From positions 806,001 to 860,553 of the forward strand of contig ML978133.1 of the NCBI GenBank assembly GCA_010015805.1: DNA of 54,553 bases, read 5' to 3'. Positions within the stretch are counted from its first letter, which is position 1. Every line of letters starts with the position of its first letter. The stretch is from Rhizodiscina lignyota. Lineage: Eukaryota. Below are positions 1 through 20,074 of this stretch, one piece after another. A model generated the notes under the pieces. It did not search any database. It was not told the DNA's origin and saw only the letters and a list, made by a program, of their open reading frames with translations. Both the position numbers and the translations under genes were made by a program.

Positions 1-423
1 CCGACACTGAACGCTGCGGCATTCTACAATCTCGTGACTTCATTCTACGAGGATGTGGGTAGAGCAGCAGATGTCGAAGACTTCTACCGACTATTTACCG
101 TTCCGGGTATGGGCCATTGCAGCGGCGGTGTAGGTGCCTGGGTTATCGATGGAGCATCGCAAGGCGGCGTGATCCCGAAAGAGAAAGGAAGCAGTCACTC
201 GATGCTGTGGTCGCTGGTGGAATGGGTCGAAAGTTCTGCCGTTAAATCTGCGAGAGGCAAAGCGCCCGAAAGCATACTTGGAACCAAGTATGTCAATGAT
301 ACCGCTAGCTTAGGCATTGAGTTTGAGAGACCCGTCTGTCGTTGGCCGACTGTGGCGAAGTACACCGGAGGTGATGCTAAGGAGTCGAGGAATTGGATAT
401 GTCCCGAGAATGGCATCTACTAA
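1..423 (+). CDS. Tannase/feruloyl esterase family, C-terminal part (5'-truncated by window)
   Basis: FYRLFTVPGMGHCSGG (catalytic His motif of the tannase family), LVEWVE..AP, and C-terminal RPVCRWP...W.C; frame is open from the window edge. Confidence 0.85.
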   Translation, partial: PTLNAAAFYNLVTSFYEDVGRAADVEDFYRLFTVPGMGHCSGGVGAWVIDGASQGGVIPKEKGSSHSMLWSLVEWVESSAVKSARGKAPESILGTKYVNDTASLGIEFERPVCRWPTVAKYTGGDAKESRNWICPENGIY

Positions 424-651: not shown

Positions 652-673
652 CGGCTGCATATTCTGTGCACCG
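652..673. promoter_or_regulatory. CGG-N16-CCG candidate Zn2Cys6 binding site upstream of MFS
   Basis: CGGCTGCATATTCTGTGCACCG; same spacing recurs at 7402, 13568, 14043 and 16723. Confidence 0.5.
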
Positions 674-707
674 TATATTGTGTACACTGTATATTCTGTG
701 CTCCGTA
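660..707. repeat. Three imperfect tandem copies of a 16-mer
   Basis: TATTCTGTGCACCGTA / TATTGTGTACACTGTA / TATTCTGTGCTCCGTA. Confidence 0.7.
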
Positions 708-1316
708 TGCCTTACCTACGGGAATTTTTTAGCCGGCGATATATGTCCAAGTCAATACTGAAAGTCACTCATTATTAAAATTTGCTATAATTCGGTTGCA
801 CCAATGCATAGGCGAGCCTTAGGAGTTGTCCACAAAGTAGTTGGAGAATATCATATGTTCGGCGATTTTCGCTCGGCGTTTTGCGAAACTACGGTACGTA
901 CGTCCGGCGACTTGTTTATGCTCTCCTCATTCCCCGCAACCGAACTCTTTCTACCTTGTCAATCCTTCCCTTTACTGGTACCAATGTTGGGGAACTGCAT
1001 CCTGCGAGGATCTGACAGCGGTGGTCTTCATGCCCTAATGCGGAGTCCTCTCCTCTTCAGGTGTACCCCAGATCTCCGCACTTCCCCGGAAACGACTCAT
1101 ACCAAAATTCATCCATGCCTTACTACAAACCGGTATGTTAAATAAACTACCGACGACTATGACTTGCGCAGGGAGAGATAAAAGATTGTCATCTGCTTTC
1201 GCCCGACATGCAGATGCATCTGTATTGTCTTGGGACTTGCCAAGTCACATATCTGTTGTTGCTGCTCTTCATTTGGCCGAGCGATTGTGCACGTGTTTGA
1301 AGCCGAACTCGCACCC

Positions 1317-3332
1317 ATGGCAGACGACAAGTATGCGGACAAGGGACAGACCGCGGAGATAGAAGAGAGAATTGAGAATCCCGAACATCACACTGTTGTC
1401 GAGAAGGATGATATTCAGGGCGACATCGACGTCGGTGCTCAAGCTCTACAGGGGCAAGAGCTGAACTTCACGGAGCAAGGTAAGTTCTCAATACTCTTGG
1501 GACAGACTGTCGACGTTAACAAGATGTAGAGAACAAACGCATCCTTCGGAAGATTGATTGGCGTATTGTTCCTCTTGCCGCCTGGGCATGTGGACTGCAG
1601 TTTGTCGATAAGGTGTGCTATTTCGTCCCGTTGCGGAGTAATTCATTTGTTTCAGTAGGATCTAACATCTGTAAAGTCTGGTCTCGGTGCCGCTGCAACT
1701 TATGGTCTTACCGATGATCTTGGTCTCGTTGGTCAGGAATATTCATGGTGTGTCTCCGTAAGTTGTCCCAAGGACATCGTCTGTCCGTGGTACTGAATTA
1801 ACGCTTCCACACAGATATTCTACTTTGGTTATTTGGCTGGCGCGTTCTTCTCCGGCCGTGCCCTCCAATGGTTTCACGCCGGGAAGGTCATCGGAATAGC
1901 CTTCTTCCTTTGGGGATGTACATTACTGGGCTGTGTTGGGGTTCACAATTTCTCAACATTGATGGCCTTGCGCTTCCTGCTCGGGTAAGAAGTTTCGGGT
2001 CATTCTTTGTCCGTCCGAGCTAATTGTACATTTGAAAGCATCTTTGAATCTGCACTTGTACCTGGTCTCATGCTCATGTAAGGAACCCTCGAACGCTTTC
2101 TCGCTCGTGCATTGACAATCTTTTAGTACCACTATGTGGTATACGCCCCAAGAGCAGCCCTTCCGCTTCGGTTTATGGACTATGACGAATGGTGCCATGC
2201 CCGTACCATTCCTTGTCATCTACTATGGCCTTGGTCATGTTGATCACGGTCCAGTGAGATCCTGGCGCCTGATCTTTCTTCTGATCGGACTGCTCAGTAT
2301 TGTGACCGGGGTCGTTCTCTACTTCTTTATGCCGGACAACCCAGTGACGGTGAAGTGGCTGAACGAGCGGGAGAAGGCCATCGCTGTCAAACGCGTCGCG
2401 GATTATCAGCTGGGTATCAAGAACTCACACTTCAAGTGGGAGCAATTGAGGGAGGCCCTCACGGACTACCGATTCTGGATGATGACGCTGCAAATGTTAA
2501 CCTCCCAAGCTGCGGGTAACGTGACTACTAATTTCCTGGGCATAATTATCAAGGCAAGTCTACTGAGCTGGGTTGGGAAAAGGAATCAGCTCATCTTTAA
2601 CTTGTAGGGCTTTGGCTACACTGCATTGAGAGCTCAGCTCTATACTGCGCCAAATTACGCGACCCAGGTATGAAGATCCGCAAGTTTAATGGCAATATCT
2701 AAACAATTCGAATAGGCTGTCACCCAAATGGTAGTTTCGATACCACCGACCTTCTTCCGGCCCTTCCGCAATTACAAGCAACCATTAACAGCCGCAGCGA
2801 GCATTGTTGCTGTAGCTGGAATCGCCGTACTTTATGTCACTCCAGCAGAACCCCAATACCAGGGACGCCGTCTTGGTGCCTGTATTATCATCTCCTGCTC
2901 TGGAGTGAACTATACTGTCGTCATGTCCGTTATCGGGTCCAACGTGGCTGGCTTTACCAAGAAACAAGTCACGACTTCAATGGCGTTCTTTATGTATTGC
3001 ATCGTCAATATTGTCACTCCTCAGACCTTCCTGGGTCGGGAGGCTCCACGATATCATACTGGTCTGGGATTCGTGCTCGGGTACGTATGATTTTTACAAT
3101 TCGTCTCATGTGTTTTGTTTCGCGCGGCTGACTCGTTATGTTTAGAATGTTGTCTGCTTTCATCACTCTCACAATGGCCACATGGCTTGTCTTCAGAGTG
3201 GAGAACGCTCGGCGGGATAAGCTGGCACTGACCGACCCCGACTATACGACTGGGCAAGATAATGAAGATCTTCTGTCGGGCCTCCGAGATGAGACGGACC
3301 GTCAGAACAACCACTTCCGCTACTCCGGCTAA
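1317..3332 (+). CDS. MFS transporter, allantoate permease (Dal5)/anion:cation symporter family, multi-exon
   Basis: ILRKIDWRIVP, QFVDK, QEYSW..SIFYFGYL, LRFLLG.FES, WYTPQEQPFR, WLNEREK, SNVAGFTKK, EAPRY, DETDRQNNHFRY; many short introns including a GC-AG intron at 2554-2607. Confidence 0.9.
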
Positions 3333-4028
3333 GGAAGCATAAGATACGGCACCTGATAACCGTTCTACGGCTCACGACATCATGGTTGGGAGAAGCGGGC
3401 TGCGATAAGATCGCACGATTTGCTGTGACAGTGCCTTAAGTATTTGATTTTTGTCTATGGCGATCTGATGAATCATAATTGTCTCAAAATGCGGAAGAAT
3501 TGCGAATGACAACATCATTGACAGTGTTCTTCCAGCTGATTCTATCTATTCTTGAATAAGTAAATCTCTGTTCTTTGGAAAAGTGCCGAATACGTGTTAG
3601 GTATGTGCTGTTAATAACCGGCAATCCTGAAGTCGCACCAAATATCAAGTTCTTGTTTATCTCATCAATGTGATTGACTATTGCAGCAGCGACACGCCTC
3701 TGGAAGTAGCAGCAGGTACTGATTTTCAGCTCCGCAAGATTGCTAGCACCAAGGAGCCGATTGCCTTGTGCAATCCAATAGTTACCTAGCTAATGGGCAT
3801 AACGGCCACAGAAACGGCGAACTCGATCAAGAATCGCCGCGAACGCAGACATTAACGCTGTACTGATACTTTGTAGGCCCTCTGGAACAATCCCAAGATC
3901 CCCGAACTATAACTCGTCCATTGCGGATTCCAAGCACAGAGATTATAAGTACAGGGCTCTTACTGAGACATGCAGAGAAATTTTTGGATCGGAGACAGTA
4001 CTGCTACCGTAGATCCGGGAGGGGTACA

Positions 4029-5761
4029 TTATAGCCTGCTGGGAACTACGTCAATCTTCTCAGGCCGCACAACATCTCGTGGATCTGCCGGTGGAAGCTG
4101 TGGTATTGGCAGATTCAATTCCGTCGCGACTGCACGAGCAGCCCAATAGCCAGTTACGAATGCGAGCGCAAGACCTCCAGCGTATTGCGAATTACTGAAC
4201 CCACCGGCGTCCACACCAGCAACTAGCAGTCCTGAAATCGGTTGTTTGTCTGCGGTTAATGCGCGACCTGCAGTGTCGATTGCAATGCCGCCGTATGTAA
4301 AAGTTATGCTGAGGAAAAGGGATGTGAGCAAGAGGAAAATTCACGAAGTGTGACGCTACGGAATGTAGGTCACTTACGATGGCTGCACTTCCATAGCCCA
4401 GAACGGACCCTCCCCTTCTACGAGCGGAGCAGGCGGTGCAAGTATTCTTCCCACTGGTGCGTCGAGAACTGCTTCAGAATGCCTCATTCCAACTTTGCGA
4501 TGATACTGTTCGAGAGTTCGCCGGACCTGTGCACCGTCTACACTCCAGCTATCTAGTGTACTGACGAGCTCATCTAACGTTTGAGCGCCAGCAACATTGC
4601 AACCGTGCTCGCGTGCCGTCTGGAGACGGTCTACGTTTCCACCATTGGGGAAGAGCGCTCCGAGGCAGTGCTGGAGTCGCGTTTTCTCGCTGTTCAGGAC
4701 ATTAGTGACAAAGACCGGGAACGGCACGGTCTATTGCGAGTTTGGTGAGTACTCACTTGAACAACAGGAATCCGCGACGGTTCGTCTGCTTCGCAAGATA
4801 TTGGTTGATTACTTCGTCGCCGAGTGTCTCATCTACGAAACGTCGACCGTATTCATTGATGAGCAGACAATACTTACTCTCTATTCATCCGTTAGCAGTT
4901 ATAGATTTTCATTCTCGTCAAGACATACGATATTGAGCAAGTGGTAAATATTGTTTCGGGTCAACTTCTTCTGATCGAACTGGACCAGCAAACAAATGCC
5001 CGTAATAGGTGTCCATTCCTCGACTTGTGCCCGCGCCCACTGCAGTCGCAAGATTTAAGCCATCTCCCACAGATCCAGGATTGGAACGTACGAAGATGTT
5101 GCTCCCTCCCGGTCCAAGATGCGCTGACTTGAGCTGCGGCGAGCCTTGGAATCCTCCCGTAGACAATACGGTCACTTTGGCGTTCACTTCGATATACTCG
5201 GATCTACTCTCCTGCAAAAAGTTACGCTTCACAATTGCTCCGGTGATGCGAGAACCATGGATCCCGGGCATCTCTTGGGTGAGTTTGATGATTTGGGTAT
5301 TTAGGAATATTTCGGAGCCGGTATTACTATTCTGTATACGCCGTTGGTGCAGCTTATGGAGGTGTGGGATCTTAATAGGATAGCCAATTCCAATAGTCAT
5401 GATCGGTTCGAACTTTGGCGACGTTGGTACACCCATGAGTCTCATCCATTGGACGGCTGGTAGGTAATCTTCCATCCAGGTATGCTGCAAGCCGGGATCG
5501 CCGTCTGGAACCCACGACCTTAAGCTCTCGTAGCTTTTCGGCGCCCAGCTAAGGAAACGGTCGTAAGTACCTAAAATCTTGACCAATTAAGAGAGAAATG
5601 AGAACATACAACATGCCAGCGGAATAGGCTGAGGACCCGCCAACTTGAGACAGCTTCTCGACAACAAGCACTTTTGCGCCAGCCTCTGCAGCAAATGCTG
5701 CACATGACATGCCAGACATGCCACCGCCACAAACCAGGACGTCGACAGAAATGGCCTTCAT
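4029..5761 (-). CDS. FAD-dependent oxidoreductase, FAD_binding_2 (fumarate reductase/3-ketosteroid dehydrogenase/TcuA-like), C-terminal PTS1 SRL
   Basis: DVLVCGGGMSG Rossmann motif, VEK..QVGGSSAYSAG, LSTGGFQG, GDGL, ITFTYGGIAID, AGVDAGG..Y.GGLA; 4 exons; ends VVPSRL*. Confidence 0.85.
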
Positions 5762-5983
5762 TTTTCCTTTAAAAGAAACTCCGATGCTATAAATGACGGT
5801 AAAGAATTGGGGCAGAGAATGAGAAGGTTCAACCACCAATGTTATTTTGGGCCGAATTGATGCATTCGCGAGCTTTAAGAAATAAGTACCTAGCAGCTAA
5901 AATACCATACCTTATTGCCGTGCAGAACACAAACCGTGTTGGTATGGTTTGGATTGGTGGGGAAGTATTTCCCGTTTGGAGTC

Positions 5984-6006
5984 CGGTGCATTAATTTGAG
6001 AGGCCG
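5984..6006. promoter_or_regulatory. CGG-N17-CCG variant site upstream of the flavoprotein gene
   Basis: CGGTGCATTAATTTGAGAGGCCG closely resembles CGGTGCTTTAATTTAGAGACCG at 13568. Confidence 0.45.
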
Positions 6007-6119
6007 CCGCCGGACCAATACTGAGCGCGGACTTTTATGGAATGTGACAGCCTCAACCGTATTGTATAGAGAACAATATCGCTATTCTCATTGAATATGC
6101 GGAATGTATATGACTACGG

Positions 6120-7338
6120 CTACAATTTTCCACCTGTAATCCGATTGAGAAATAGAACTAACTGCGAGTTCGAGAGCGACTTACGAGCAAGAGTGCCTTC
6201 TAATCCGCAACTAGCAGCAACATTGTGCCATGATGCCATTCCACGCTTCGCCCATTCATCCGGAACTCTACAATACGTACAGCGTCAGTAAATAAGACAC
6301 AGGTTAAAATGAGAGGTCTCAGTCTTACGAAGGGCTTGGCTTCCACAATTCCAAGTGAAATACTTCCATTGAGACCCATCCTCGATATCCAATGTCGAAG
6401 ATCGCCTTCGCTACATCAAGTGCAGGCAACGTACCGCCGTGCTGAGGCTCGCAGGGGAAGATACGACAATTCCGAGACTGTGTCATAAACGGCGGCTGCT
6501 TCAAATCTCGCATGGGATAGCCTTTCTGCTCTGGGTCTGCAACAGTCGCATCGCTTAATTGGAAATACCCAATGTCGCCAGCTTTGACGGTCCTCTTCAA
6601 TTCTTCCAAGCTCTGTTTCAATCTCTGTGAAGCATCCGGCCGGACGGGAGAGGAAGCATTGAATGGATCTCCCGCCTCCTTCGCTGCGATGTGAAAGGTG
6701 TCCATGCAAAATCTAACATTCGGGAGATTAACTAAGGCAAGAATGTCGCGCATTTGCTGCCATGTGTTGATGTGGATGCCCCATGCCACTGCTTCGTACG
6801 CAACAATCAAGTCATACTTTTGAGCCAGATGACCAAGCCGCTTCAAGTTTTCGGCGATCTTGTGGTAATCAGAAGTGAGCGGTTTTCGTATTGGATAGAT
6901 GCATGATGGAATCTAGAAGCACAGTCAGTCGACTGGAAATGAAATTGAGAAACACTCTCTGACTTGGAAGATTGAAGCCCGAAGTATGTTGCAGACCTGG
7001 CACCACAATTCAGCTTCCTTGAGGCGAGCTTCAATGTCTTCTGGATCAGCGAGCGAATCATAGAACCCAAAAGGGTTCACTGCAATGATTTCCAATGACA
7101 ATGAATCTGCTTTCTTGACAACATCGCGAGCGGCGGCGCGCAAACGTTCGGCATGAGAGGGTTCTCCTGAAAACGCGCCGGAAGTGGCGTGTGCTTCAAG
7201 ACACTCCCAAGCCACCTCCACGCCATCGAAACCATGCGCCCGAGCTGCCTCCATCTTGCGATGAATGCCATGACCGGCAGCAGACTTGCCGAGAGAGTTC
7301 GTGCTAATAGCAATGCGTATATCAGAGGACTGGACCAT
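6120..7338 (-). CDS. 3-dehydroshikimate dehydratase (qa-4/qutC)-like xylose-isomerase TIM barrel, copy 1
   Basis: IAISTNSLGKSAAGH...KMEAA..HGFDGVE resembles the qa-4 N-terminus; YEAVAWG, DTFH, QLSDA, RIFPCE, GYRGWVSMEVF; last exon VPDEWAKRGMASW...GKL*. Confidence 0.8.
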
Positions 7339-7401
7339 TTTCGCTGCTCTCGCGTTCGAACAGAAACTCGTCAGTTGCCTCCTGATATGTCGATGAGACT
7401 C

Positions 7402-7423
7402 CGGTCGACAAATTTTGCGACCG
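7402..7423. promoter_or_regulatory. Palindromic CGG-N16-CCG site in the short divergent promoter between the qa-4-like gene and the SDR
   Basis: CCGGTCG-ACAAATTTTG-CGACCGG inverted repeat (7401-7424), followed by two ACGCGT. Confidence 0.55.
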
Positions 7424-7601
7424 GACGCGTCCGACGCGTTAAGCACTCACGGGTATCTCATTTCATCAGCATACAGCCGAGTGCAGTGGAAAAAGCGCGG
7501 CGTCTATAATCAGAGTCCCGTGAATGTTCTGAGGCTTTTCAAAATGGCGTCAGACAGCAGATTGCGGTGTTTGAAGAAACGATCAATCATCCCCGTCCGC
7601 A

Positions 7602-8759
7602 ATGCCTCTTCGAGCGAAAGTCAATTTTCCTGGTACCGTGGCGGCCGCAGCAAGCCCGCGAGTTGTAATCGTGACAGGTTTGCAAGCCTTCTGTATAGAA
7701 GTTGAGTCCGTTCTGATAACAAGGGTACAGGTGGTGCGGACGGGTTTGGGTCGGCCATCGTTGATCGGTTTAGTAAAGAAGGCTGCAAAGTCATCTTCCT
7801 CGATCTTGATAAAGTAAAAGGGCCCGCCAAAGCTCAGTCCAACAGTAATTTACACTTCATCTTCGGCAATGTGGCACGTCGTGAATGCTGGCAAGAGGCA
7901 TTGGATTTCGCGAAAAAGCAGTACGGAAGGCTTGACGTCGTTGTCAATAATGCCGGTACGGACAATCCTCACCTTAGTCCTGCGGCAATCATGTTAATTT
8001 TTTTAAATCACAGGGATTACATACGAGCCTTCAGTACGTCCATCCGTACGTTTGCGTGTGATATGAAGCTCACAAAGTCGGTAGCAAGTGCACACGAAAT
8101 CGATCGAGTTGTACGAAAAGGTCTTCGATGTGAACGTCAAAGTACATAGGCCGTTTGTTGCCGCTGAGGTTCCTTTCTGACTTCTTTCTCAGTCGGTGTT
8201 CCTTAGTGCTCAAGTGATATGTCCATTCATGCTAGAGCAAGGGAGTGGAGCTTTTATAAATATCACGAGGTGTGTTAAGAGCAATGCGAATTAACCACGG
8301 CAGCTCACCAAGAAATTCAAAGCACGGGATGCACTCGCCCAAGGCCAGGATTTGCCTTCTACAATGCCTCGAAAGCTGCAGTTCACGTAAAATTGCTCTC
8401 AATTGACGCAAAGCCTCAAAGCTGATCACGAGGTAGCTCGCTTCAAAGACTATGGCCCTCGAATACGCGCCCACCATCCGTTTCAATTGTATTTGTCCTG
8501 CAGTGGGAAATACGGCAATGCAAGTGGCCTCGCATCTACCAAAGTAAAACCACTAACGAAACTTTCTCAAAGGCTGCAGAAGAGCATCGGAAACGATGAT
8601 CAATCTGCAGAGCGCCTGCGGAAGCTGGAGATGATGCTGCCTATGGGAAGGGTCACGGAACCTGAAGATATCGCTAATGCTGCTTGGTATCTGGGCTCGG
8701 AGCAAAGCTCGTTTGTCACTGGGACCATGCTTGAGGTCGATGGCGGACGAGGTGTGTGA
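7602..8759 (+). CDS. Short-chain dehydrogenase/reductase (classical SDR, FabG/TsaC-like), many small exons
   Basis: Spliced VIVTGGADGFGSAIV, NNAG, RPRPGFAFYNASK (YxxxK), PEDIANAA.YL.SEQSSFVTG..LEVDGGRGV; GC-AG intron at 8520-8572. Confidence 0.85.
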
Positions 8760-9179
8760 CATGAACGTAATCCATCTTCTTGTTGTCGGAGTAGCACATT
8801 TAATAGATCATCTACCCCTACAGACTCACAAAATGCAGGCGTTCGAATTGAACTCAGGGCGATGAGCTTGAACGAGGAGATCACGACTTTGCCTTCAGCG
8901 ACGATAGCTGTCACGAAAATGGTTTTTGTAACACATACTAATTATTACCCCGTATACCGTATCGTTACTCACGAAAGCTTAACTAAGTAGCCGCTAAGAG
9001 TTTACTAGTCTACCAGGGGCCTCCCACTCATACTCCGCATTAACCCCACCTCACGCGAATATGTTCGATGAACAAAGATTAGCTTGGGATAGTTGGCACC
9101 TAAAGGAAGGTTTCTCATAGTATTACTCTTCTCTTGTCACGTCCAAAAATAAAGCTGGTTGTCCAGTGTGCTTTAACAC

Positions 9180-11757
9180 ATGACAACGGAGATTCAGGAG
9201 TCTTCGCCCTCGGCGAAACGGCGTTCGTCAACTTCAACGCCCGCAGCATGCGAAGCATGTCGAAAATTGAAAGTACGTCTGCCATGATTGAACGGCAGAC
9301 TCTGTAGTAACTGGAATCGTGTAGATGAGATGTATCAGGGTCGAAGGTGCCGATACAAGACCGGGACCCGTCGATCCCTGCGACCGATGTAAACGCAATA
9401 AACGACCCTGTATCATCCCAAAGCCGCGTCCTCTGGGTCGTAAACATGGAGCACTCGGTCGATACCAAGGCATCGAGAAGGCAGTCCGCAAAATCAAAAC
9501 CGAGCTACGGAAAGCGCAAGCGTCAGGTGATGATGTCCTCAGCCTTCCAGGACTGGCAGATTTTGTTTCGAGCGAAGGCGACATGCGCGATATTCTGCTT
9601 TCGGATAATGCTACTCAAATACAGGATGATTCTCCGACACATCAAGATGAGAATCAATCTTCGCGGGCCGTGAATCCACGCCCCACTTCGTCATACTCGA
9701 ATGATTCATTTCAAGAGGATGCAGCACTTGTTCAAAATCCCAGTGAGAGACGGCCACACCAGCACAACGAAGAGCCTATCAGCAATCCCCTAGGCCTCGT
9801 GGCAGATGCATCTGGAGAAGCACAGGCCCAAGTAAGGCAATCCGTAGCTTCAGGAACTTCTCCAGTATCAATTGGATCAAGCACTCGACAGACGGCCTTT
9901 GCCCAGGAGAGCGAGCCTCGAAGTCTGGCCCGGCACTTGTTGAGAAGGCCTGGATATGTATCACTTGGCCTGAAGTTGAGCAGAGAAAGCCTCGAGCTAG
10001 GCTTGGATACCCTCTTTGCTCATGCTGGCCTCACGTGTCGATATTCCGACTATTTTACTCCTGCAGATACCAATCAACCTCGCGACACGGGGCCGGATTT
10101 AGACCCAGTTGACTTAGGCCTGGTAACCATGGAGGAAGCACATTATCTATTCCCAATGTAAGTTAAACAATGTCTCATTAAGAACACCTTACAAGTACAG
10201 TACTCATTTCGTCTTCCCAGGTATTTCGCTCGTCTTCACCCTTTCAACGGCATTCTTGACCCAATCTTGCATACGCCAGAATTTGTACGATCTCGTTCAG
10301 CATTGCTCTTCACGTGGATTCTGGCTATCACTTCCCAGTTTGACCACGCTTCAAGTTCGATGGCTAAGAGGTTACGGCTGCACGGAGAGAACTTATCAAA
10401 ACATGTCCATGCACACGGATTCAAGTCAGTCGAAATTGCGCAAGGATACTACGTCTCACTACTCTCCGCTACACCTGCAAAGACAATGTCAGAGGAACGG
10501 TCATGGATCTACACAAACTATGCCTTCGGCATGGCCGCTGAACTGGTTTTTGATCATCAGTCTCGACCGCAGAATTCCCTTACACCACGAAGGCGAACGA
10601 GAACTTCCTCTCCTTTGCCTCTCTCAAGTGCGCAGGAGAGTGGAATGGCAAGATCAATCGGTGCAATACGTGATCCAAATATCAACATTTCTGAGGATCC
10701 CTATCGCCCTCAACGGCTTGCCAGAAACCGTGAGCGGACTTGGCTGAGAATCCTCTTGTGGGAAAGAGCGCACAGTGCAGCTCGAGGCAGGATGAGTTCT
10801 TTTCCCGACACTGAGATAACACTCCGGATCGAAGACTGGTGGACACATCCTCTCGCGCTACCAGAAGACAGATATACGTGTGCCTTTATTTTGCTGCGAC
10901 GACAATTGGCACGGTTGCACGATGAGATAAGACGACAGGCCGAATTTTCGCACATCAATCATCATTGGGTGCGAGATCTTGTTGATTCTACTCTTAGGCC
11001 CTGGCGACAGACGTGGCTGGCACCCCCGGATGCTTTCACGACCCCGACTGCCGACCAAGTTGCCAATCTCTATCTGAGCTACGTCTACATGCATGGCAGA
11101 CTCTGGACCTTATCATTCGCATTACATGGACCCACAAGCGGACGTGAGGACTCTTATGCAATCAAAGAAGATTGCTTCGAAGCGGCAGTCAGCTGCTGCG
11201 AAATTGCTGTCCGAGACCTGCAACAAGTTGGAGAGCCCATCTACTGCATGTTAGCACCAACTTGGGCCATGATTTCGTACGCTGCTGTTCTCGCACTGAA
11301 GCTGTTCCCCATGCTACATGGCAATCGAGCTGGCTATGAGGTTGAACTTCTCGCGCTCATCTCACAAGTTGCACTGCAACTGGAGCGCGCAGGAACAACG
11401 CCAACGCATCGCTTTGGCATCTCAGCACTTCTTGGGCAACACCTGTTCTTAATACTACGCAACAGGGCAAATGTGTTGAAAGAGCTAGCGAAGAATGGCA
11501 AAGATGGGGAGGAGCGCCAAAGTGCTGCGGCTGGCGAATGGCAGGCTCTGCATAGACATGGTCTTCAGCACTTGCCCAACGAACAGCAGACGGAGAGATT
11601 GAACGACCCGCCACTGCTCTTCGATCCGCTCGTTTCAGCATTCGACCCATTTCTGACTGGCCCGCCTCTACCAGGCGAAGAGGAGTTTGCCCCTGATGAC
11701 GCGTTTAGCGAAATGATTCGTGAATGGTTCGGTCAAGGCTTTGGAGGGGTTATTTGA
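9180..11757 (+). CDS. Zn(II)2Cys6 fungal transcription factor with middle homology region
   Basis: Spliced ACEACRKLK|MRC...PCDRCKRNKRPC; DPVDLGLVT..EA..LF, YF..LHP, RNRERTW; 3 exons. Confidence 0.9.
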
Positions 11758-11868
11758 TGGGGAACTAAATCTATAAATTCTCTAGATGTCTCATTGGGCA
11801 CCTTCTGTATACGCACACCTGTACAGCAATGATCTATTTCGGGTTCTATTCCAACGCGAGCGCCTCCT

Positions 11869-13407
11869 TCACAGCTTACTCTTAGGAACATCCGGTATGT
11901 CACACTCACTAAACCGAACCTCTTCCCGCATCGCTTTGTTTACAAAGTATGGATCTTCTCTCAACGGCCGACCCAAGCCACACATATCGATGTCTCCTTT
12001 TGCAACTGCCTCCGCCATCCGATGGCTGTCACGCCAACCACCTGTGGTTCCGATCACGGCGCGAGACTATTCAGTCAGGCTACGAGTAACATAAATCGGT
12101 TGAGATTGCTTACCAGCACTTTCTTCAACTCCTGGGCCCACTCAATGAAGTAACTTCCACGTTCCTTCCTCGATGGCCTTTCGGCGAGCTCGGTCATGAT
12201 GTTGCCCCTCCAAGCTGGTGTTGCGTACGTGCCGCCAGATATGTCGAAGAAATCTACGCCTGCCTCTTCTAGCCATTTGATGACTACGCATTGCTCCGCG
12301 AAGCTTTGACCTCCTTCCATGACTATTGGGTCGGACTCAGTACTCACAGATGGGATGTTGAAGAGACATTGGATTCTTACAATCGTGGCAGCTTAATTTT
12401 GCTGCAATGACGAACCTGCGCGACGGACATTTTGCTTTGATCGCGTTTACCAATTCGAGGACGAACCGAGCGCGATTCTCAAGGCTTCCGCCATACTGGA
12501 TTCCATATCAGAGATCAATTTGGAGTGGAAGAGCCACATCATGTCATACTCGACACGCACCTCGTCTGTTCTCTTGTTTGTTTTTGGAGACAAAAATTGA
12601 TTTATGATATATCCATGGCAGGCATGTAACTGTGCGTGTATCAGCACCATATAATCAGAGCATTGCTCAACTCACAATGATGCCGTCCGCGCCAGCTTCG
12701 GCTAGAACCCCTGCAGCCCAAACATACCTCCCTATCAGCTCCTTAATCTCCGCCTTACTCAGAGGTGTCGGCTTGCCGTACGTCTTGTTCAAACAAGGTT
12801 CCAGCTGTACATCGGATGACGACTTGGGGTGCGGATTTATAAAGTCTGGGACTTGTCGGCCTGGATACTGGAGCTGCGGCAGACACAGCGCTCCGCGAGA
12901 CTTTGCTGCTTTGATGGCGGGCCGAAATGCCTCGACAGGGTCCCAAGGATTCCGTGGATCTAGCACAGCGTTGTTGTAGTTCTCAAGGCTGTTCCGGTCC
13001 ACGGGGATGTTGCCGAAGCAAATCAAGCCAGCGCCGCCGTCTGCGAGTTCTGCGGAAACGGTGAATACAAGATCATGGAATAGTGACAGGCTGTAGAGGG
13101 CGAGACATTGTACCTTGGTAGAGTTCTACATATCGTGGTAGTGGCCTGCCTGTACTTTCGATGTTGTTCTCATCGTATGATGAGGCGTATTCGGATAGTG
13201 GTGTGCGGTAGAGTCGATTGGGGATTACTTTGCCAGATAGCTTGAGAGTAATAGGCTTTTGGATAGACGTAAGCTGTTGAAACCAAAGGGACTAAAGTTC
13301 CTCGTCTGCTATTGCCATTGACAAACAAAGGGCACATCTTATTCAGAGAGAGTTTACACACGCACCTGGGCCAGAGCAGAAACAGGGGAGATATTTTGAG
13401 GAGACAT
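11869..13407 (-). CDS. NADH:flavin oxidoreductase / Old Yellow Enzyme family, C-terminal PTS1 SKL
   Basis: PNRL.[62 protein letters not shown], GLGRP; ends PKSKL*. Confidence 0.9.
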
Positions 13408-13567
13408 CTTTGAAAGTATCGACGTGTGAGAATGATTAAACTCACATACTAAGTAAGAAAATCAACGCGATCTAATTCCGTCATAATAGAAATTTCATGG
13501 CTTGAATGCTTCACGAAAATGCCAGATCCTTTCATTCTTCGACCAAGGCCGATGCCACGGGCTGGAT

Positions 13568-13589
13568 CGGTGCTTTAATTTAGAGACCG
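13568..13589. promoter_or_regulatory. CGG-N16-CCG site, OYE-proximal
   Basis: CGGTGCTTTAATTTAGAGACCG. Confidence 0.55.
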
Positions 13590-14042
13590 AGGTATCTATA
13601 TAGTAAGAACCAACAAGGTTCACACTAATAACAGCCACATGCGCAAGATTACGGTCATGTAATTGTCCCATCGTTTTTAAAAGTGTTTTAAACCGACCCC
13701 TATACTCCGTAAAACGTGAGTTTGAGCCCGATGAATCGACCACGCCTCCCAACCATCGCTCGATGGTATGGAAAAAGTTCAGCCGAGTTATGGTACCACA
13801 AACTGGCATATTCTATACATTTAACACAAATCATGTTTATTCAAGTGGAGCGCTCTGAATAAGTACACTTCAAGACACATCGAATCAAGCTTCCAAAGCT
13901 GCTCTCGCATATGTTGAAGAACAAAGCTCGTTTATGCTGCACCCGTTCGCCTTCATTTGGCCCAACAGTCTGTCACCCACGAGAACCGCCGCAATTGGTT
14001 CCACTCATGTGCTGGCAAAATGATCACCCAGAATCCAGAGGT

Positions 14043-14064
14043 CGGACCCTATTTCAATAGCCCG
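14043..14064. promoter_or_regulatory. CGG-N16-CCG site proximal to the second qa-4-like gene
   Basis: CGGACCCTATTTCAATAGCCCG. Confidence 0.55.
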
Positions 14065-14205
14065 GCAACGCGGCTCTTCATCCCCGCTCTAGACACTGCA
14101 ATCGCGATATTGACAGTTCAAATTTAATAAGCTTAACATCGATATGCTTCTGTCTTCCAACTGAGGGCTTCTTCAAGTGCTAAAAGAGAAAGGTCGAGCA
14201 GCGCG

Positions 14206-15390
14206 ATGACTACTCTTCCAATTGCTCGGCCCATCGCGTGGCCGCCAGCGTCAATTCATAATGAGCTTGGAACTGCAACACTGTCTCTTGGAAATGCGAA
14301 AGAACACAGACTGGAACCTCGTTTGCGAGCAGCCGCCAAAGCAGGATTTCGGGGCATTGACCTTTTCGACGACTGTTGGGCTGCGTATCTTGAAGAGCAT
14401 GGCTTGGACGGGGAGCGCCTGTGGGAAGCGACACCCGAGAATCTTCAGATTGCGCGAAAACTAGGCGATCTGGTGAAGTCATTAGGGATGATAATTACTT
14501 GCACTCAGCCATTGCGCAAAATCGAAGGCATCAAAGATCCTGCGGAGCGGCGAGCGACTCTGGATTCTGTAGCTAAACGTTTTCCATTTATGCGAGCATT
14601 CGACACAGACCTGGTCTTCATGTGCGCTAGCATTAGAAACGATAGCGGTGTCACGTCGGACCTCAAGACTGTCGCAAAAGATCTGGCGGAGCTTGGTGAC
14701 ATGGCTGCGGCTTTCTCCAGAGCCGATGGTGGTCGGATGTTGAAGATCGGATACGAAGGACTCTCCTGGGCGACAAGGAACACTCTACATTCATCATGGG
14801 AGGTTGTTCGTGCGGCTAAGAGAGTTAATGTGGGACTGGTCGTCGATGCTTTCAATGTTTTGGCCGTGGAGTGGGCAGATCCGTACAACCCAGCTGGGCA
14901 TGGTCGTGTCTATTCGACGGTGGAAGAGTCTATTGAGATACTATGTCTCTCTCTCGCATCCTTCGTTAATTCTGTGCCTGGAGATCGGATATTCTTCTTC
15001 CAATGCGGCGACGCTGAACTGATGAATCCAAACACGTTCAGACCTCCCACAGATCCTGGTATCCCAGCTTTGCTTCCGTGGTCACGCGCCCATCGACTTT
15101 ATCCGTTTGAGGCATCTAAAGGTGGCTATATGCCGACTGATTTGGTTACGGCGGCAGTTTTAGCGACTGGATATACAGGCCAAATATCGCTCGAAGTGTT
15201 CAATCAGTTCTTGAACGTCCCAGGTGAGCATGTCCCGACAGAGGCCGCAAAGAGGGGTATCGTTGGTTTGAAGAAGCTCGTAGACTCGGTAAAAGACGTC
15301 CCTGCGTTTTGGAACGCGTCACAGAAAGTGTCTGTGGAGGATTTGGTCGGCTTATACATGTCTCAGAGGCGGGAGAGGTCCAGAATATAA
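14206..15390 (+). CDS. Sugar-phosphate isomerase/qa-4-like TIM barrel (3-dehydroshikimate dehydratase-like), copy 2, intronless
   Basis: ATLSLG...H.LE.RL.AAAKAGFRGIDLF, YEGLSWA, DAFN, QCGDA, WSR.HRLYPFE..GGYMP, GYTGQISLEVF; ends SRI*. Confidence 0.8.
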   Translation: MTTLPIARPIAWPPASIHNELGTATLSLGNAKEHRLEPRLRAAAKAGFRGIDLFDDCWAAYLEEHGLDGERLWEATPENLQIARKLGDLVKSLGMIITCTQPLRKIEGIKDPAERRATLDSVAKRFPFMRAFDTDLVFMCASIRNDSGVTSDLKTVAKDLAELGDMAAAFSRADGGRMLKIGYEGLSWATRNTLHSSWEVVRAAKRVNVGLVVDAFNVLAVEWADPYNPAGHGRVYSTVEESIEILCLSLASFVNSVPGDRIFFFQCGDAELMNPNTFRPPTDPGIPALLPWSRAHRLYPFEASKGGYMPTDLVTAAVLATGYTGQISLEVFNQFLNVPGEHVPTEAAKRGIVGLKKLVDSVKDVPAFWNASQKVSVEDLVGLYMSQRRERSRI

Positions 15391-15542
15391 GAAGTCGGGC
15401 AAGTGCTGAAGGCTAGATGAGAGCTACAAATCGTCCAACTGTGGACTTACAATTCTTTCATGACTTCATGTAAAAGGGAAAGGGAGGTACGAATTATGCG
15501 TTTAATTGACGACCTTGAAAGGCAGTCCTGATCTTCAGAGAT

Positions 15543-16592
15543 CTACGCTAATTTCCCAAGAACATAAGGATGACCAGCCGACAAAGCTCCATCGACAGCT
15601 ATTGCTTGACCATTCATGTAGCTTGCCTCGTCACTTCCCAGGAACAGGACGACTCTTGCAACCTCATCTGGCACAGCCCCTCTCTTCAGTGGGTTTAGCT
15701 GACCGATCTTCTTTTCCGTTCCCCTTGCTCTTGCCGATTCAAACATGGCATTTGTCATTCCTGTCTCGATTAGGCCAGGGCAGATCGCATTGCACCTGAT
15801 GCCAGTGCCAGAAAGCTGATATGAGCAAGTCTGCATTATAGAGATTACTGCCGCTTTCGCGGCAGAGTAGTCTGTCGTACCAGCGTTGGAGCGTATTCCA
15901 GCAGTAGACGCGGTACCGATGATAGAGCCGGAGGGATAGGGCTTCGAGGGGGAGGTCTTGAGCATAGCACGTGAACCATATTTAGCGGCGAGGAAGACAC
16001 TAGACCTTGATATCAGCGTACCGACGGCAGAGTGCGGTGACCGAAAGCAAACCTTAAGGCATTGACCTTCATCATCTTCATAAACTCCTCTGCCGTATAA
16101 TCATAGAACATCTTCCCACTGGAAATGCCCGCGTTGGCAAAGAATACGTCTAGCCTTCCATACTTCTCTACAGCTTCATCTACCACCGCTTTGACAGACG
16201 CTTCGTCCGATGCGTCAAATTGCCGGGTATGAACGTCCACCGCAGGATATAATGAGTTGATCTCTCGCTTATGAATGTCGAGATACTTTGAGTCGAAATC
16301 GCATATGAAGATCGCCTTAGCGCCGTTCTCAGCGTACTGGTGTGCGGTTGCTCGTCCGATCCCAAGGGGAGAGTTCGTGCCAGTGATTATCACTACCTTG
16401 TCCTTACACCTCCTTCAAAGGATATGTTAGTGGTGCAATTGTTCAATTGAGTTTCGAAGGCACTCACGGTCCCGCAGAAGCCCCAGCGACTTTGCGGATT
16501 TTTGGGATTCCTTCAAAGGTTCCAGCAGACGGTATTCCTTCGACGATCTCCTTGCTAATGCCAGCAAGCTGCCGTTTTGGTGGGGAAGGCAT
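15543..16592 (-). CDS. Short-chain dehydrogenase/reductase, 3 exons
   Basis: IITGTNSPLGIG, FFANAG, DYSAAKAA (YxxxK), NAICPGLIET, QAIAVDG. Confidence 0.9.
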
Positions 16593-16722
16593 GATGAATC
16601 TGAAGCGCTCGAGCCGAAGATGTAGATAAATTGACTGATTGAGATATAATCTGGAATTTGGCAAGCCCGCAAGCCCGCCTCTCAGAGGCCATGGTGCTGC
16701 GTGTGGAGAGTGAGGTGAGCTC

Positions 16723-16744
16723 CGGTGGAGCTCGGAGGGGACCG
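16723..16744. promoter_or_regulatory. CGG-N16-CCG site about 130 bp upstream of the second SDR
   Basis: CGGTGGAGCTCGGAGGGGACCG; spacer is GC-rich, unlike the other sites. Confidence 0.35.
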
Positions 16745-18086
16745 AGGCAAAGAGTTCGAGTGATATTTTGATGCGTGCCCCGAGCTTTCTACATACAACC
16801 TCCTCTTCGATATCAAGAACCGGATACCAAGCGGCAGTAGTATAATGTCAATTGGAGTAGCTACACTCCCTACCCATTTAGATAGACAGTTACCGAAGAA
16901 ATTCTAAGTTGGCTGGGTCTTCAATCTCGCGAACCTTGACGAAGGCTTCCACCGCATTGAACTGATATCGATTTTCGAATGGATTCAGAGCTGGAGACTC
17001 CTTACTTGAGCGTCTAGCGCAAACAGTTGCCTACAAATTAAGCGTGCAGCTTAATTCAACAGACTTGACATTAGAGCTATTGTCCACGATACGTCCAATC
17101 GCCTGCTTCTAAGTTCCTTTTATGTAGCAGTGATGCTCAAGCTATAAATATATCCATTTCGAAAGCATAATTATAGTCCTGAAAGGTTTCTCATGCTCGA
17201 CTCAAAGCCAGAAACAGGCTAACCTTAATTCACGAAGCTAATCTTCGGAATCTTCACTGACAGTCGCTTTCGACTCGTGCTTGGCCTCGCATTGGAGCGG
17301 TAGACTCGTCCTCATATTTGTAGTCGGAGTCGGAGTCGGAGGCATCTTTGGCCTTTATTCTCCCTTGTCCCTTCTGTATGAGTTTGCGCTTCTTGCGTTT
17401 CGGCGCATCTTAATTCGTTGTTAAAATGTATTACAGGGTGGACTTGGGCTTTCGTCATCCTTTGGGATACCTGTTGGACGCGTCTGAAGACCCGGGGATA
17501 AAATCATCGTCTTCTTCTTCTGTTAGCTCTCGGTTATGCTTCCTCCCAAAACATAGTGTTCAGATACCAGGTTGTTCTCGTCTGGGCCTGGTCCACTGGT
17601 GCTTCCCACGCACCGTGTTCGTCTCGATGTCTACCGCAGCCACGTCCACAAGTGTTTCCACGTCCATGTTAGCCCCGTAGCTGCAGCTTAACCATTAAAG
17701 ACGCATAATCTCTTTTTTACGTCTTTTGTTGATACGTCTATCTGCAATAATGGACTGTAGAGAACGAAATGGTCAAGCCTCGACCTGCGTAAATTGGCAA
17801 GAAAAAGTGAAACCTGCATATAATTGAACATATGCTGAACTGGTAGCCTCTTTCCTTACTACTTTATCGAAATTCGTGGAAAATAAGCTCTACGTGGGAG
17901 AGGTTGAGGCCACAGAGGTGGCTCCTGGCGGAATTGAACCGATGTGTCGCGCTGGGCGCAATACGTTGCAGACTCTCTTACACCAACTCACACCATAAGT
18001 TTGCCCAGGGATGTGAACACATTGCAAGTGTCCATCTCTAGTCTGACCCATCCACATTTCCGCTCCCTCCTTTGCATCTTGTCGGA

Positions 18087-18857
18087 CTAAGCCGTGGCGA
18101 TCTCCGTTATCGTTTGATAGAATTGAGCCGGATCATGAGCAAAACGGCCTAAGAAGAGCCCATCCACTCCAGTCTTCAGGTTTTCAAACAAACCAGGGCC
18201 AGCACTTCCGCCATAGAGAATGCGTGTAGTCCCACGTCTCTTTTGCACACAATCCAGTGATCTTATATCCTTTGTCACCGCAACCACATAATCTGCTCCA
18301 GCAGGCTGAGCTGCACCAATCGCCCAGACCGGCTCATAAGCCAGAATGACTTCCGCTTCATCGGGCACCGCCGCCATCACAGCCTCGACTTGGGCTTGAC
18401 ACTCATTGACGGCCACGGCAATCTCGCCCTGGGTGCGTTCACCAATGCAAACTAGAGGAATCATTCCATTTCTCGCAGCAGCTGCAGCCTTTCGTGCGGC
18501 ATCGTCATCTGTCTCACCAAAGATTCGTCTCCGTTCGGCATGGCCAAGCTCGACGATGCGACATCCAACTTCGGCAAGAACTGCGGGAGACACTTCACCA
18601 GTGTAGGCTCCTTTGTCTTCGTAAAATGAATCCTGAGCTCCTGTGAGGATCCTGCTGTTCTCTAATTGCGCGATGACGGACGTCAAGGTAACGAAATCCG
18701 GAATGATGAAGACATCGAGCTGATCCAGAATGTTTGACGACTTGGAAATATGTGTCAACAGTTCATCAGCGTACTGCTTTGTTCTCGCAGCCGAGAAGTA
18801 CATTTTGGTAGAGACACCTACAAGCCGGCGGCGAGGAGGGGAAGCCATTGTAGACAT
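18087..18857 (-). CDS. Triosephosphate isomerase-like protein (divergent TIM; probable L-erythrulose-1-phosphate isomerase type)
   Basis: GVSTKMY (vs NWKMN), GAYTGEVSP, GHAERR, AYEPVWAIG, ILYGGSA, DGLFLGR (vs DGFLVGGASL); intronless. Confidence 0.85.
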   Translation of the reverse strand: MSTMASPPRRRLVGVSTKMYFSAARTKQYADELLTHISKSSNILDQLDVFIIPDFVTLTSVIAQLENSRILTGAQDSFYEDKGAYTGEVSPAVLAEVGCRIVELGHAERRRIFGETDDDAARKAAAAARNGMIPLVCIGERTQGEIAVAVNECQAQVEAVMAAVPDEAEVILAYEPVWAIGAAQPAGADYVVAVTKDIRSLDCVQKRRGTTRILYGGSAGPGLFENLKTGVDGLFLGRFAHDPAQFYQTITEIATA

Positions 18858-19071
18858 TATAGTATGGGTTGACAAGTTGAAGTGAGTAGGATGATCTCGG
18901 TCGCGACACTTATTTCTTTATTCTCTTTGGGCCTAGCGTTTCCTTCTTCGATACTAGCGCCATTTCATCAGAAAGGTACACTATTGACTATCTTTCCCCC
19001 TGGATCTTTACACACCAACTCAAATTATTCTATTGCCTCATCCGACTAACTAGAATGAGTAGAAGTTCGAT

Positions 19072-19627
19072 TTACATATCCTTTTCTAGGTCGATTATAG
19101 CAGCCACTTTCGCCGCACTCGCGCTCTTCTCGTCGAATACGTAACCCAGCCACTCCTTAGCCAACCTCCGTGCAAGCTCCAGGCCAACTACTCTCTCGCC
19201 CATACAGAGGACTTGTGCATTGTTGCTGAGGACCGCCCTTTCCACCGAGAAACTATCATGCGCCGTTACTGCTCGGACGCCCTTGACCTTGTTCGCTGAA
19301 ATGGCGACGCCGAGTCCCGTCCCGCAAATGAGCAGAGCTCTGTCAACTTTGCCGTCGGCGACGAGTTTTGCAGCGTCTGCAGCTCGATGAGGGTATGCCG
19401 TTTTGTCTTCGGTTCCGAAGCTGCCGACATCTATCACGGACTCGACCCGAGGGTCCGCTTCGAAGTCGGCTTTGATCTTGTCCTTGTATGAGACGCCTGC
19501 ATCCTGAGGAGTAAGACCGGCTGTTAGCTTGCGTATGAAGTATTTGAGGCTCAGAATGAGCTCTTATCCGAAGGTAGGTGGAACTAACATCGCAGCCCAT
19601 GGCAATCTTCCACTTTGGAGCAGCCAT
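19072..19627 (-). CDS. rpiB: RpiB/LacA/LacB family sugar-phosphate isomerase (probable erythrulose-4-phosphate isomerase type)
   Basis: [51 protein letters not shown]; one intron. Confidence 0.9.
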
Positions 19628-20074
19628 CTTGTGGTTCTGGTTGTTTGTTCTGGACTTTACAGCTGGACTCCTGCATTTTAGCCACTGGAACTTTTTTTCG
19701 ACTGCTCATATGACGTTACACATGTGCGGAAAATACTAGTCCGGCTGTCAATGTGGATCTCGCCTGATTTCGGTTTACTCTATCAAGCGTCCCGACCGGG
19801 TCAATCACCGTCAGTAGCAATTTACCCCTCCATTTACCCCACCTATCTCGTGAGTAACTACGACGATTCAAGGCTTGTGAAAATATGGATGGGCAGAAGC
19901 TGTTAACTCTGAGTCCTAGTTTCTGACTTGTCGGAAACTTCCTCCTTCTCGCGAGGAAGACCACGATATCCAATTCGATCAGTGTACACCCGTATTCGAT
20001 ATACTCCCACCGTCTCTCATCCACAAGGTACACCTTATCCTACCACATAAAATAGCTGTTGATCGGAGCACATC

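Follow-up and report, generated by a model that had tools for sequence, protein, structure and literature searches.

Does the inverted CGG repeat that recurs at a fixed spacing in a fungal catabolic gene cluster mark a regulon, and which protein would read it? The cluster lies near the start of the window, that is, the whole 54,553-nt stretch of Rhizodiscina lignyota contig ML978133.1 that was analyzed (host genome label G000). It holds genes for an MFS transporter, a FAD-dependent oxidoreductase (FADox), two dehydroshikimate-dehydratase-like proteins (qa4a and qa4b), two short-chain dehydrogenases (SDR1 and SDR2), an old-yellow-enzyme (OYE) family flavin oxidoreductase and a Zn2Cys6 transcription factor, and it is preceded by a tannase/feruloyl-esterase gene. 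Zn2Cys6 proteins have as their standard site an inverted CGG repeat of fixed spacing, and a first-pass annotation had proposed such a site, CGG-N16-CCG, in the promoters of this cluster. We find that the element is very probably real and functional. Its refined form is YCGG-N4-W8-N4-CCGR, and it probably serves a small catabolic regulon as its upstream activating site, with the linked Zn2Cys6 protein as the likely reader. This reading builds on the observed enrichment, conservation and position of the sites, on gene linkage, and on conservation of a linker in the protein.

A pattern scan found exact CGG-N16-CCG at all five positions claimed by the first-pass annotation (652, 7402, 13568, 14043 and 16723). 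Its list was incomplete: a sixth promoter N16 site is present at 1131 and an N17 match at 7498, and the MFS gene itself contains two further N16 matches, one in an intron (1996) and one in an exon (3213). The MFS promoter carries a proximal site (1131..1152), 175 bp from the ATG, with an 8/8 A/T core and YCGG..CCGR ends, and a secondary, distal site (652..673), 654 bp from the ATG, with a 6/8 A/T core. The site in the divergent qa4a/SDR1 promoter (7402..7423) is the extended palindrome described earlier, with 12 of 16 spacer positions self-complementary and CCGG at both ends. The top-scoring site of the window (13568..13589) lies 171 bp upstream of the OYE gene, and that at 14043..14064 lies 152 bp upstream of qa4b and has positional counterparts in four of seven orthologous promoters. 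The site at 16723..16744, 141 bp upstream of SDR2, has YCGG-type flanks and the right position, and its core is G/C-rich (2/8 A/T); its membership in the regulon is doubtful, and a match of this kind has a chance of about 4.6% of falling within 250 bp of a given ATG. Two N17 variants were also seen. One of them (5984..6006), which can equally be described as a one-mismatch N16 site, lies 233 bp upstream of FADox; its spacer had been called nearly identical to that of 13568, which is true of 13 of the first 14 bases, after which there is a one-base slip, and its first 15 bases are nearly identical to a site in an orthologous locus, L028. The other (7498..7520), near the SDR1 ATG, is weak and possibly due to chance. 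The promoters of the transcription factor and tannase genes both lack the site, and exact N16 is absent from the 12.9 kb upstream of the window. The 652 site is part of a local tandem duplication (window 652-710), in which the copy that follows it is degenerate and no longer has the left CGG.

Enrichment was assessed in a promoter set of six intergenic stretches (3,524 bp, transcription factor promoter included), with gene models from translations and Pfam and with borders chosen by the analyst after viewing the window. The background consisted of 45 stretches of G000 (450 kb, coding and non-coding mixed). Across the whole window the N16 spacing is unremarkable, with 11 matches against a range of 3-17 over spacers 0-30. 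The excess is restricted to promoters, where six N16 sites are found versus 0.46 expected from the background (P 9e-6) or 0.66 expected by the mean over spacers (P 6e-5, or 0.002 after multiplication by 31). The P value becomes 0.005 once the siteless tannase promoter is added to the promoter set, and the five previously named sites alone give a corrected P of 0.018. Counts at the adjacent spacers are 0 for N15, 2 for N17 and 1 for N18. Of 5,000 dinucleotide shuffles of the promoters, 0 reached six matches at N16, and 1 did so at some spacer in the 0-30 range. Neither everted nor direct CGG repeats form a peak of their own; the six direct matches at N17 probably result from CCGG ends on N16 sites. 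Separately, the cluster promoters hold four matches to CGG-N26-CCG (905, 6028, 7402 and 13558; P 0.003, uncorrected), and two of these matches share a half-site with an N16 site, placing an extra half-site one helical turn off.

These figures bear on the possibility that the pattern is accidental, with CGG and CCG triplets flanking A/T-rich promoter tracts and a spacing picked afterwards. The lack of N16 enrichment over the whole window, or genome-wide relative to N18 (15 versus 14 matches to a tight pattern defined below), is what such an accident would predict, as is the ease with which a single site such as 16723 can arise. Neither the P value that survives correction for 31 spacers nor the shuffles fit with it, and it also conflicts with the independent ortholog test and the cross-trained matrix described below. 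Chance thus has very little probability of being the explanation.

A functional site is expected to persist in orthologous promoters, and for this comparison the spacer was fixed at 16 beforehand. An alignment of qa4b relatives, used to scan metagenomes, retrieved 12 loci. Seven of them are close orthologs (L026-L032, 67-81% identity); five distant loci (27-30%) were left out, and the test covers one cluster gene, qa4b. Within 500 bp before the ATG, exact N16 was observed in four of the seven promoters (L028, L029, L030 and L032) and N15, N17 and N18 in none, a result equaled in 2 of 5,000 shuffles. The site centers lie 135-200 bp from the ATG, compared with 152 bp in the window. Of their 16 spacer bases, the window and ortholog sites have just 3-11 in common, and blastn aligns none of the promoter pairs that include the window, indicating that the half-sites and their distance are kept while the intervening sequence drifts. 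When the eight promoters were aligned with MAFFT, the sites did not fall into a common column, so conservation here is one of pattern and position rather than of alignment. The earlier reading of the motif as a Zn2Cys6-type inverted CGG repeat is thus borne out in that the pattern is both non-random and conserved. In three fungi that are related to one another (L029 ~3505-3525, L030 ~9893-9911, L032 ~2138-2156), the N16 site is followed some tens of bases further on by a second common element, CGGRTATTYGATCATCCAT, which was not seen in the window promoter.

The window and ortholog sites resemble each other beyond the CGG triplets. The central eight bases hold on average 6.3 A/T in the window and 7.25 in the orthologs versus 4.0 in 59 background N16 sites, and the Y/R flanks (YCGG, CCGR) are found at 18 of 20 positions versus 60 of 118 in the background sites. 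With a matrix built from the four ortholog sites alone, the top three positions in the 54.5-kb window are 13568 (21.4 bits), 14043 (18.9) and 1131 (15.9); background matches of at least 14 bits occur once per 450 kb. The sites at 7402, 7498 and 5984 rank fifth, seventh and ninth, the fourth and sixth places go to sequences other than CGG-N16-CCG, and 16723 is outside the top 15. When the matrix was trained in the reverse direction, the qa4b site ranked first in each of L028, L029, L030 and L032. Genome-wide, a tight pattern that was partly tuned on these sites (YCGG-N5-W6-N5-CCGR) occurs 15 times in 33.4 Mb, three of them in this cluster; the corresponding patterns with N14 and N18 have 6 and 14 matches, all outside the cluster. 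The remaining 12 matches to the tight pattern are dispersed, several of them within long open reading frames, and no cluster-like gene was recognized near them (with frame starts read by eye). The tight pattern is therefore a local signal, as expected of a small regulon. The proposal that the motif marks cluster membership holds for most enzyme and transporter genes; it does not extend to the whole cluster, as the tannase and transcription factor promoters are siteless, 16723 is unranked by the matrix and 652 is distal. The tannase gene may thus lie outside the regulon.

The candidate binder is encoded within the cluster. The transcription factor gene (9180..11757, forward strand; introns 9267-9318 and 10152-10214) encodes a protein of about 820 residues with a six-Cys signature and without a close paralog in G000 (closest, 28%). 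Linkage was read by eye from locus tags, for same-strain pairs with ordinal tags. Orthologs of the transcription factor and qa4b are at most 10 tags apart in 9 of 11 pairs, and those of the transcription factor and FADox in 8 of 9 (42 apart in N7462); all three genes are consecutive in two Penicillium strains. By locus-tag adjacency, FADox, the Zn2Cys6 gene and qa4b (window 4029-15390) form a conserved trio across many ascomycetes, and literature searches returned no described function for it.

The protein itself also carries a conserved feature that could relate to spacing. In an alignment of 38 homologs chosen from 120 listed, the linker after the sixth cysteine is gap-free in all 38. It is about 18 residues long and Gly/Arg-rich (consensus xIPxPRPLGR[KR]xGAxGRYxG), with G9, R10, G13, G16, Y18, K23 and A24 invariant, the last two falling in a helix that follows the linker. 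An AlphaFold model of one homolog (P0123) shows coil from residue 54 (Cys54) and a helix at 73-96. According to the accessible part of PMC10954478, it is the linker and the coiled coil that determine how far apart the CGG repeats lie in the Zn2Cys6 family, and a long, basic and invariant linker would accordingly fit a long, A/T-rich spacer. Taken together, the sequence evidence indicates that the linked protein is probably the reader of the CGG-N16-CCG site.

Several observations weigh against this reading. Among the fetched ortholog loci, the motif and a transcription factor ortholog are never found together: the L029 and L032 sequences stop within qa4b or shortly beyond it, and L030 has no ortholog of the factor within 10 kb on either side. 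In L028, the three best N16 sites precede a shikimate-dehydrogenase-like gene, qa4b and an unrelated Zn2Cys6 gene. The transcription factor and qa4b tags are far apart in 2 of the 11 genomes (FE257 and G4B84), and the linker region of the P0123 model has a confidence score (pLDDT) below 50. The exact site is absent from three of the seven ortholog promoters, L026 and L027 retaining a degenerate half-site with an A/T tract and L031 nothing. Furthermore, given the kinship among L029, L030 and L032 (78-89% protein identity and a common downstream element), counting them as one lineage leaves two of five (P 0.034). L026 is surrounded by housekeeping-like genes and the FADox gene of L031 looks truncated, which may explain the loss of the site there.

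Some of these points would be accommodated if the site were genuinely regulatory and its reader were another Zn2Cys6 protein from elsewhere in the genome, leaving the linked factor with another role or as a co-factor. In L028, the unrelated Zn2Cys6 gene has its own N16 site, among the top-scoring, 165 bp upstream, an arrangement that resembles autoregulation of that gene (its product is unrelated to the window factor; hhalign probability 0.3%), and L030 carries the motif without a linked transcription factor in 21 kb. Yet the L028 protein has only 33-34% relatives in G000, and the best site near the two best of these scores 8.2 bits. The motif is also confined to this cluster in G000, its other tight-pattern matches being scattered and no more numerous than the N18 control would suggest, and the linked protein has no close paralog. 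We therefore regard a reader encoded elsewhere as unlikely, though worth keeping in mind. The L028 locus (8355-17593) is in itself a different gene context for the same motif: a shikimate-dehydrogenase-like gene, qa4b, a CoA-transferase III gene, an acyl-CoA thioesterase gene and the unrelated Zn2Cys6 gene, with N16 in three promoters. In L030, a gene upstream was considered as a shikimate dehydrogenase and ruled out (no Pfam match). Scans of viral contigs with the transcription factor and qa4b alignments gave no relatives.

Spacing also allows comparison with known Zn2Cys6 systems. Gal4-type sites share with the window motif inverted CGG triplets at a fixed spacing in the promoters of co-located genes; the window motif differs in its spacer of 16, its A/T-rich core and the Y at -1, and the linker is longer, with about 18 residues up to the helix against roughly half as many in Gal4. 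In the portions of PMC4872168 and PMC10954478 available, the Gal4 site is given as CGG-N11-CCG and a candidate PglR site as CGG-N3-CCG, the latter inferred by the same logic of enrichment plus conservation. War1, whose weak-acid response element is CGG-N23-CCG (PMC4872168, in part), likewise has a long inverted CGG spacing, with a spacer of 23 instead. The oleate response element of Oaf1/Pip2, CGGN3TNAN9-12CCG, corresponds to N15-18 (Table 2 in the accessible part of PMC3897899), a range that includes 16. Given these precedents, the description of the N16 spacer as unusually long was an overstatement. The window motif departs from the Oaf1/Pip2 element in that its spacing peaks at 16 and its targets are not fatty-acid oxidation genes. 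As a candidate identity for the motif, the oleate element was rejected: its TNA signature is found in 0 of 8 window sites (2 of 6 in the sites from other fungi).

Oaf1/Pip2 is a heterodimer of yeasts, and War1 responds to organic acids. An Oaf1-Pip2-style heterodimer, or two monomers on YCGG half-sites with the A/T tract acting as a nucleosome-free or bending element instead of being contacted by protein, would be consistent with some tolerance in spacing (N17 at 5984 and 7498, and the half-site-plus-tract remnants in L026 and L027), with spacers that are mostly non-palindromic beyond their A/T content, and with N16 falling in the Oaf1 range. This arrangement is nevertheless improbable, since the spacing is sharp in both the promoters and the orthologs, the TNA signature is missing from the window sites and the cluster has a single transcription factor gene.

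For the linked factor acting alone on its site, we infer binding, dimer state, activation and minor-groove contact from the observations above. The protein would bind as a homodimer, with one zinc cluster on each CGG. The Gly/Arg-rich linker of about 18 residues (PxxRPLGR[KR]xGxxG), which precedes an amphipathic helix, would span the 16-bp spacer and would probably touch its A/T-rich minor groove. Upon sensing an inducer, the factor would activate the genes for the transporter, FADox, the two dehydratase-like proteins, the SDRs and OYE, acting at sites that precede the start codons by 75-235 bp. Its own gene would not be autoregulated through a CGG-N16-CCG site. The inducer is a guess, most likely a plant-derived alicyclic (hydroaromatic) carboxylic acid.

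The gene content is consistent with a catabolic role. The MFS transporter gene (1317..3332, forward strand) has one exon that matches MFS_1, and a D-galactonate/anion symporter model stays below its cut-off. FADox (4029..5761, reverse strand), a FAD_binding_2 oxidoreductase, belongs to the TcuA/flavocytochrome c/3-ketosteroid dehydrogenase superfamily and scores below all named cut-offs shown. The two AP_endonuc_2 TIM-barrel genes are qa4a (6120..7338, reverse strand; 3' end approximate), dehydroshikimate-dehydratase-like, and the intronless qa4b (14206..15390, forward strand; 394 residues), which is QuiC/DSD-like, below cut-off. SDR1 (7544..8759, forward strand) was identified by six-frame translation, and SDR2 lies at 15543..16592 on the reverse strand. 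The OYE gene occupies 11800..13407 (reverse strand; 3' end approximate), and the 3' end of the tannase/feruloyl-esterase gene 1..423 (forward strand), its promoter lying upstream of the window. None of the transporter and enzyme genes of the proposed regulon reaches a named cut-off among those shown.

This set of genes recalls the qa/qut quinate cluster, which likewise brings together qa-4-like dehydratase genes, a permease and a Zn2Cys6 activator (PMC12610400, accessible part); the window cluster differs in having no dehydroquinase, quinate dehydrogenase or repressor gene in our annotation. A separate, canonical-looking quinate cluster exists in G000 (C7:633000-650000, L094-L096), with a one-mismatch site of the qa-1F type. 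The qa-4 gene of that cluster is preceded, at about 840 bp, by an N16 site of moderate score (11 bits), which is probably due to chance. The qa-1F/QutA site was rejected for the window, where the 16-bp consensus gives one 3-mismatch match inside the transcription factor coding region and none in promoters. In the part of PMC12610400 available, the Aspergillus niger dsdA paralog NRRL3_07603 is not induced by quinate.

Flavoproteins related to FADox (~35-40%) occur in Actinobacteria at 59 loci, with an MFS family in 48 and SDR2-like SDRs in 47; a qa4-like or OYE gene was found in none of the 59. Two annotated loci (e.g. L097:706-8969 and L100:1229-8894, from the set L097-L155) encode, in this order, an IclR regulator, an SDR, a ShiA-like transporter and three tandem FAD_binding_2 proteins, one of which is the FADox relative; none among those shown reaches a named NCBIfam cut-off. 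Shikimate-dehydrogenase-like genes adjoin the qa4b orthologs in L028 and L031. Bacterial chc enzymes for cyclohexanecarboxylate (ChcB2/ChcC1/ChcC2) were considered and rejected (FADox 79 and 67 bits versus cut-offs of 1000 and 900; SDR2 exon 81 versus 350). The gene content suggests that the cluster may oxidize and aromatize an alicyclic carboxylic acid, the substrate being a guess. More speculatively, and with the odds rather against it, this could be a widespread fungal regulon in which a Zn2Cys6 subfamily bridges a strict 16-bp spacer with its invariant Gly/Arg linker, reads the A/T minor groove, and switches on a route of FAD desaturase, dehydratase, SDR and OYE that aromatizes a plant-derived cyclohexane carboxylic acid other than quinate; the actinobacterial operon, which encodes three related flavoproteins, would be its parallel.

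Literature searches found no description of such a regulon, nothing on this cluster in work on cyclohexanecarboxylate or on qa paralogs, and nothing on motifs in the accessible part of PMC10512348. Neither a fungal CGG-N16-CCG site nor An09g03290, the A. niger ortholog of qa4b, appeared in the main texts searched, a scope outside which supplements, most of the subscription literature and motif databases fall, so that a prior description could be missed. Because this class of site is already textbook, the mechanism will not surprise a specialist, and its spacer is long but precedented; the regulon is apparently uncharacterized. The motif assigns a candidate DNA site to a transcription factor family that spans Aspergillus, Penicillium, black yeasts and Leotiomycetes, for which no named member was found, and it helps to define which genes belong to a conserved catabolic module. 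A strict N16 together with an invariant long linker offers a clean case for how linker length sets spacing. The 24-bp site combined with a minimal promoter would be a ready reporter for screening plant acids as inducer, a question on which the supplementary expression tables of A. niger studies may also bear.

The cluster is flanked by other genes on both sides. Upstream of the window (L006:5461-10000), cytochrome P450 and homocysteine S-methyltransferase genes precede the tannase gene, and N16 is absent among them. Downstream (window 18087-21841), N16 is absent from the two promoter stretches checked, and the adjoining triosephosphate-isomerase-like, RpiB and dihydroxyacetone-kinase genes resemble a polyol or tetrose catabolic module.

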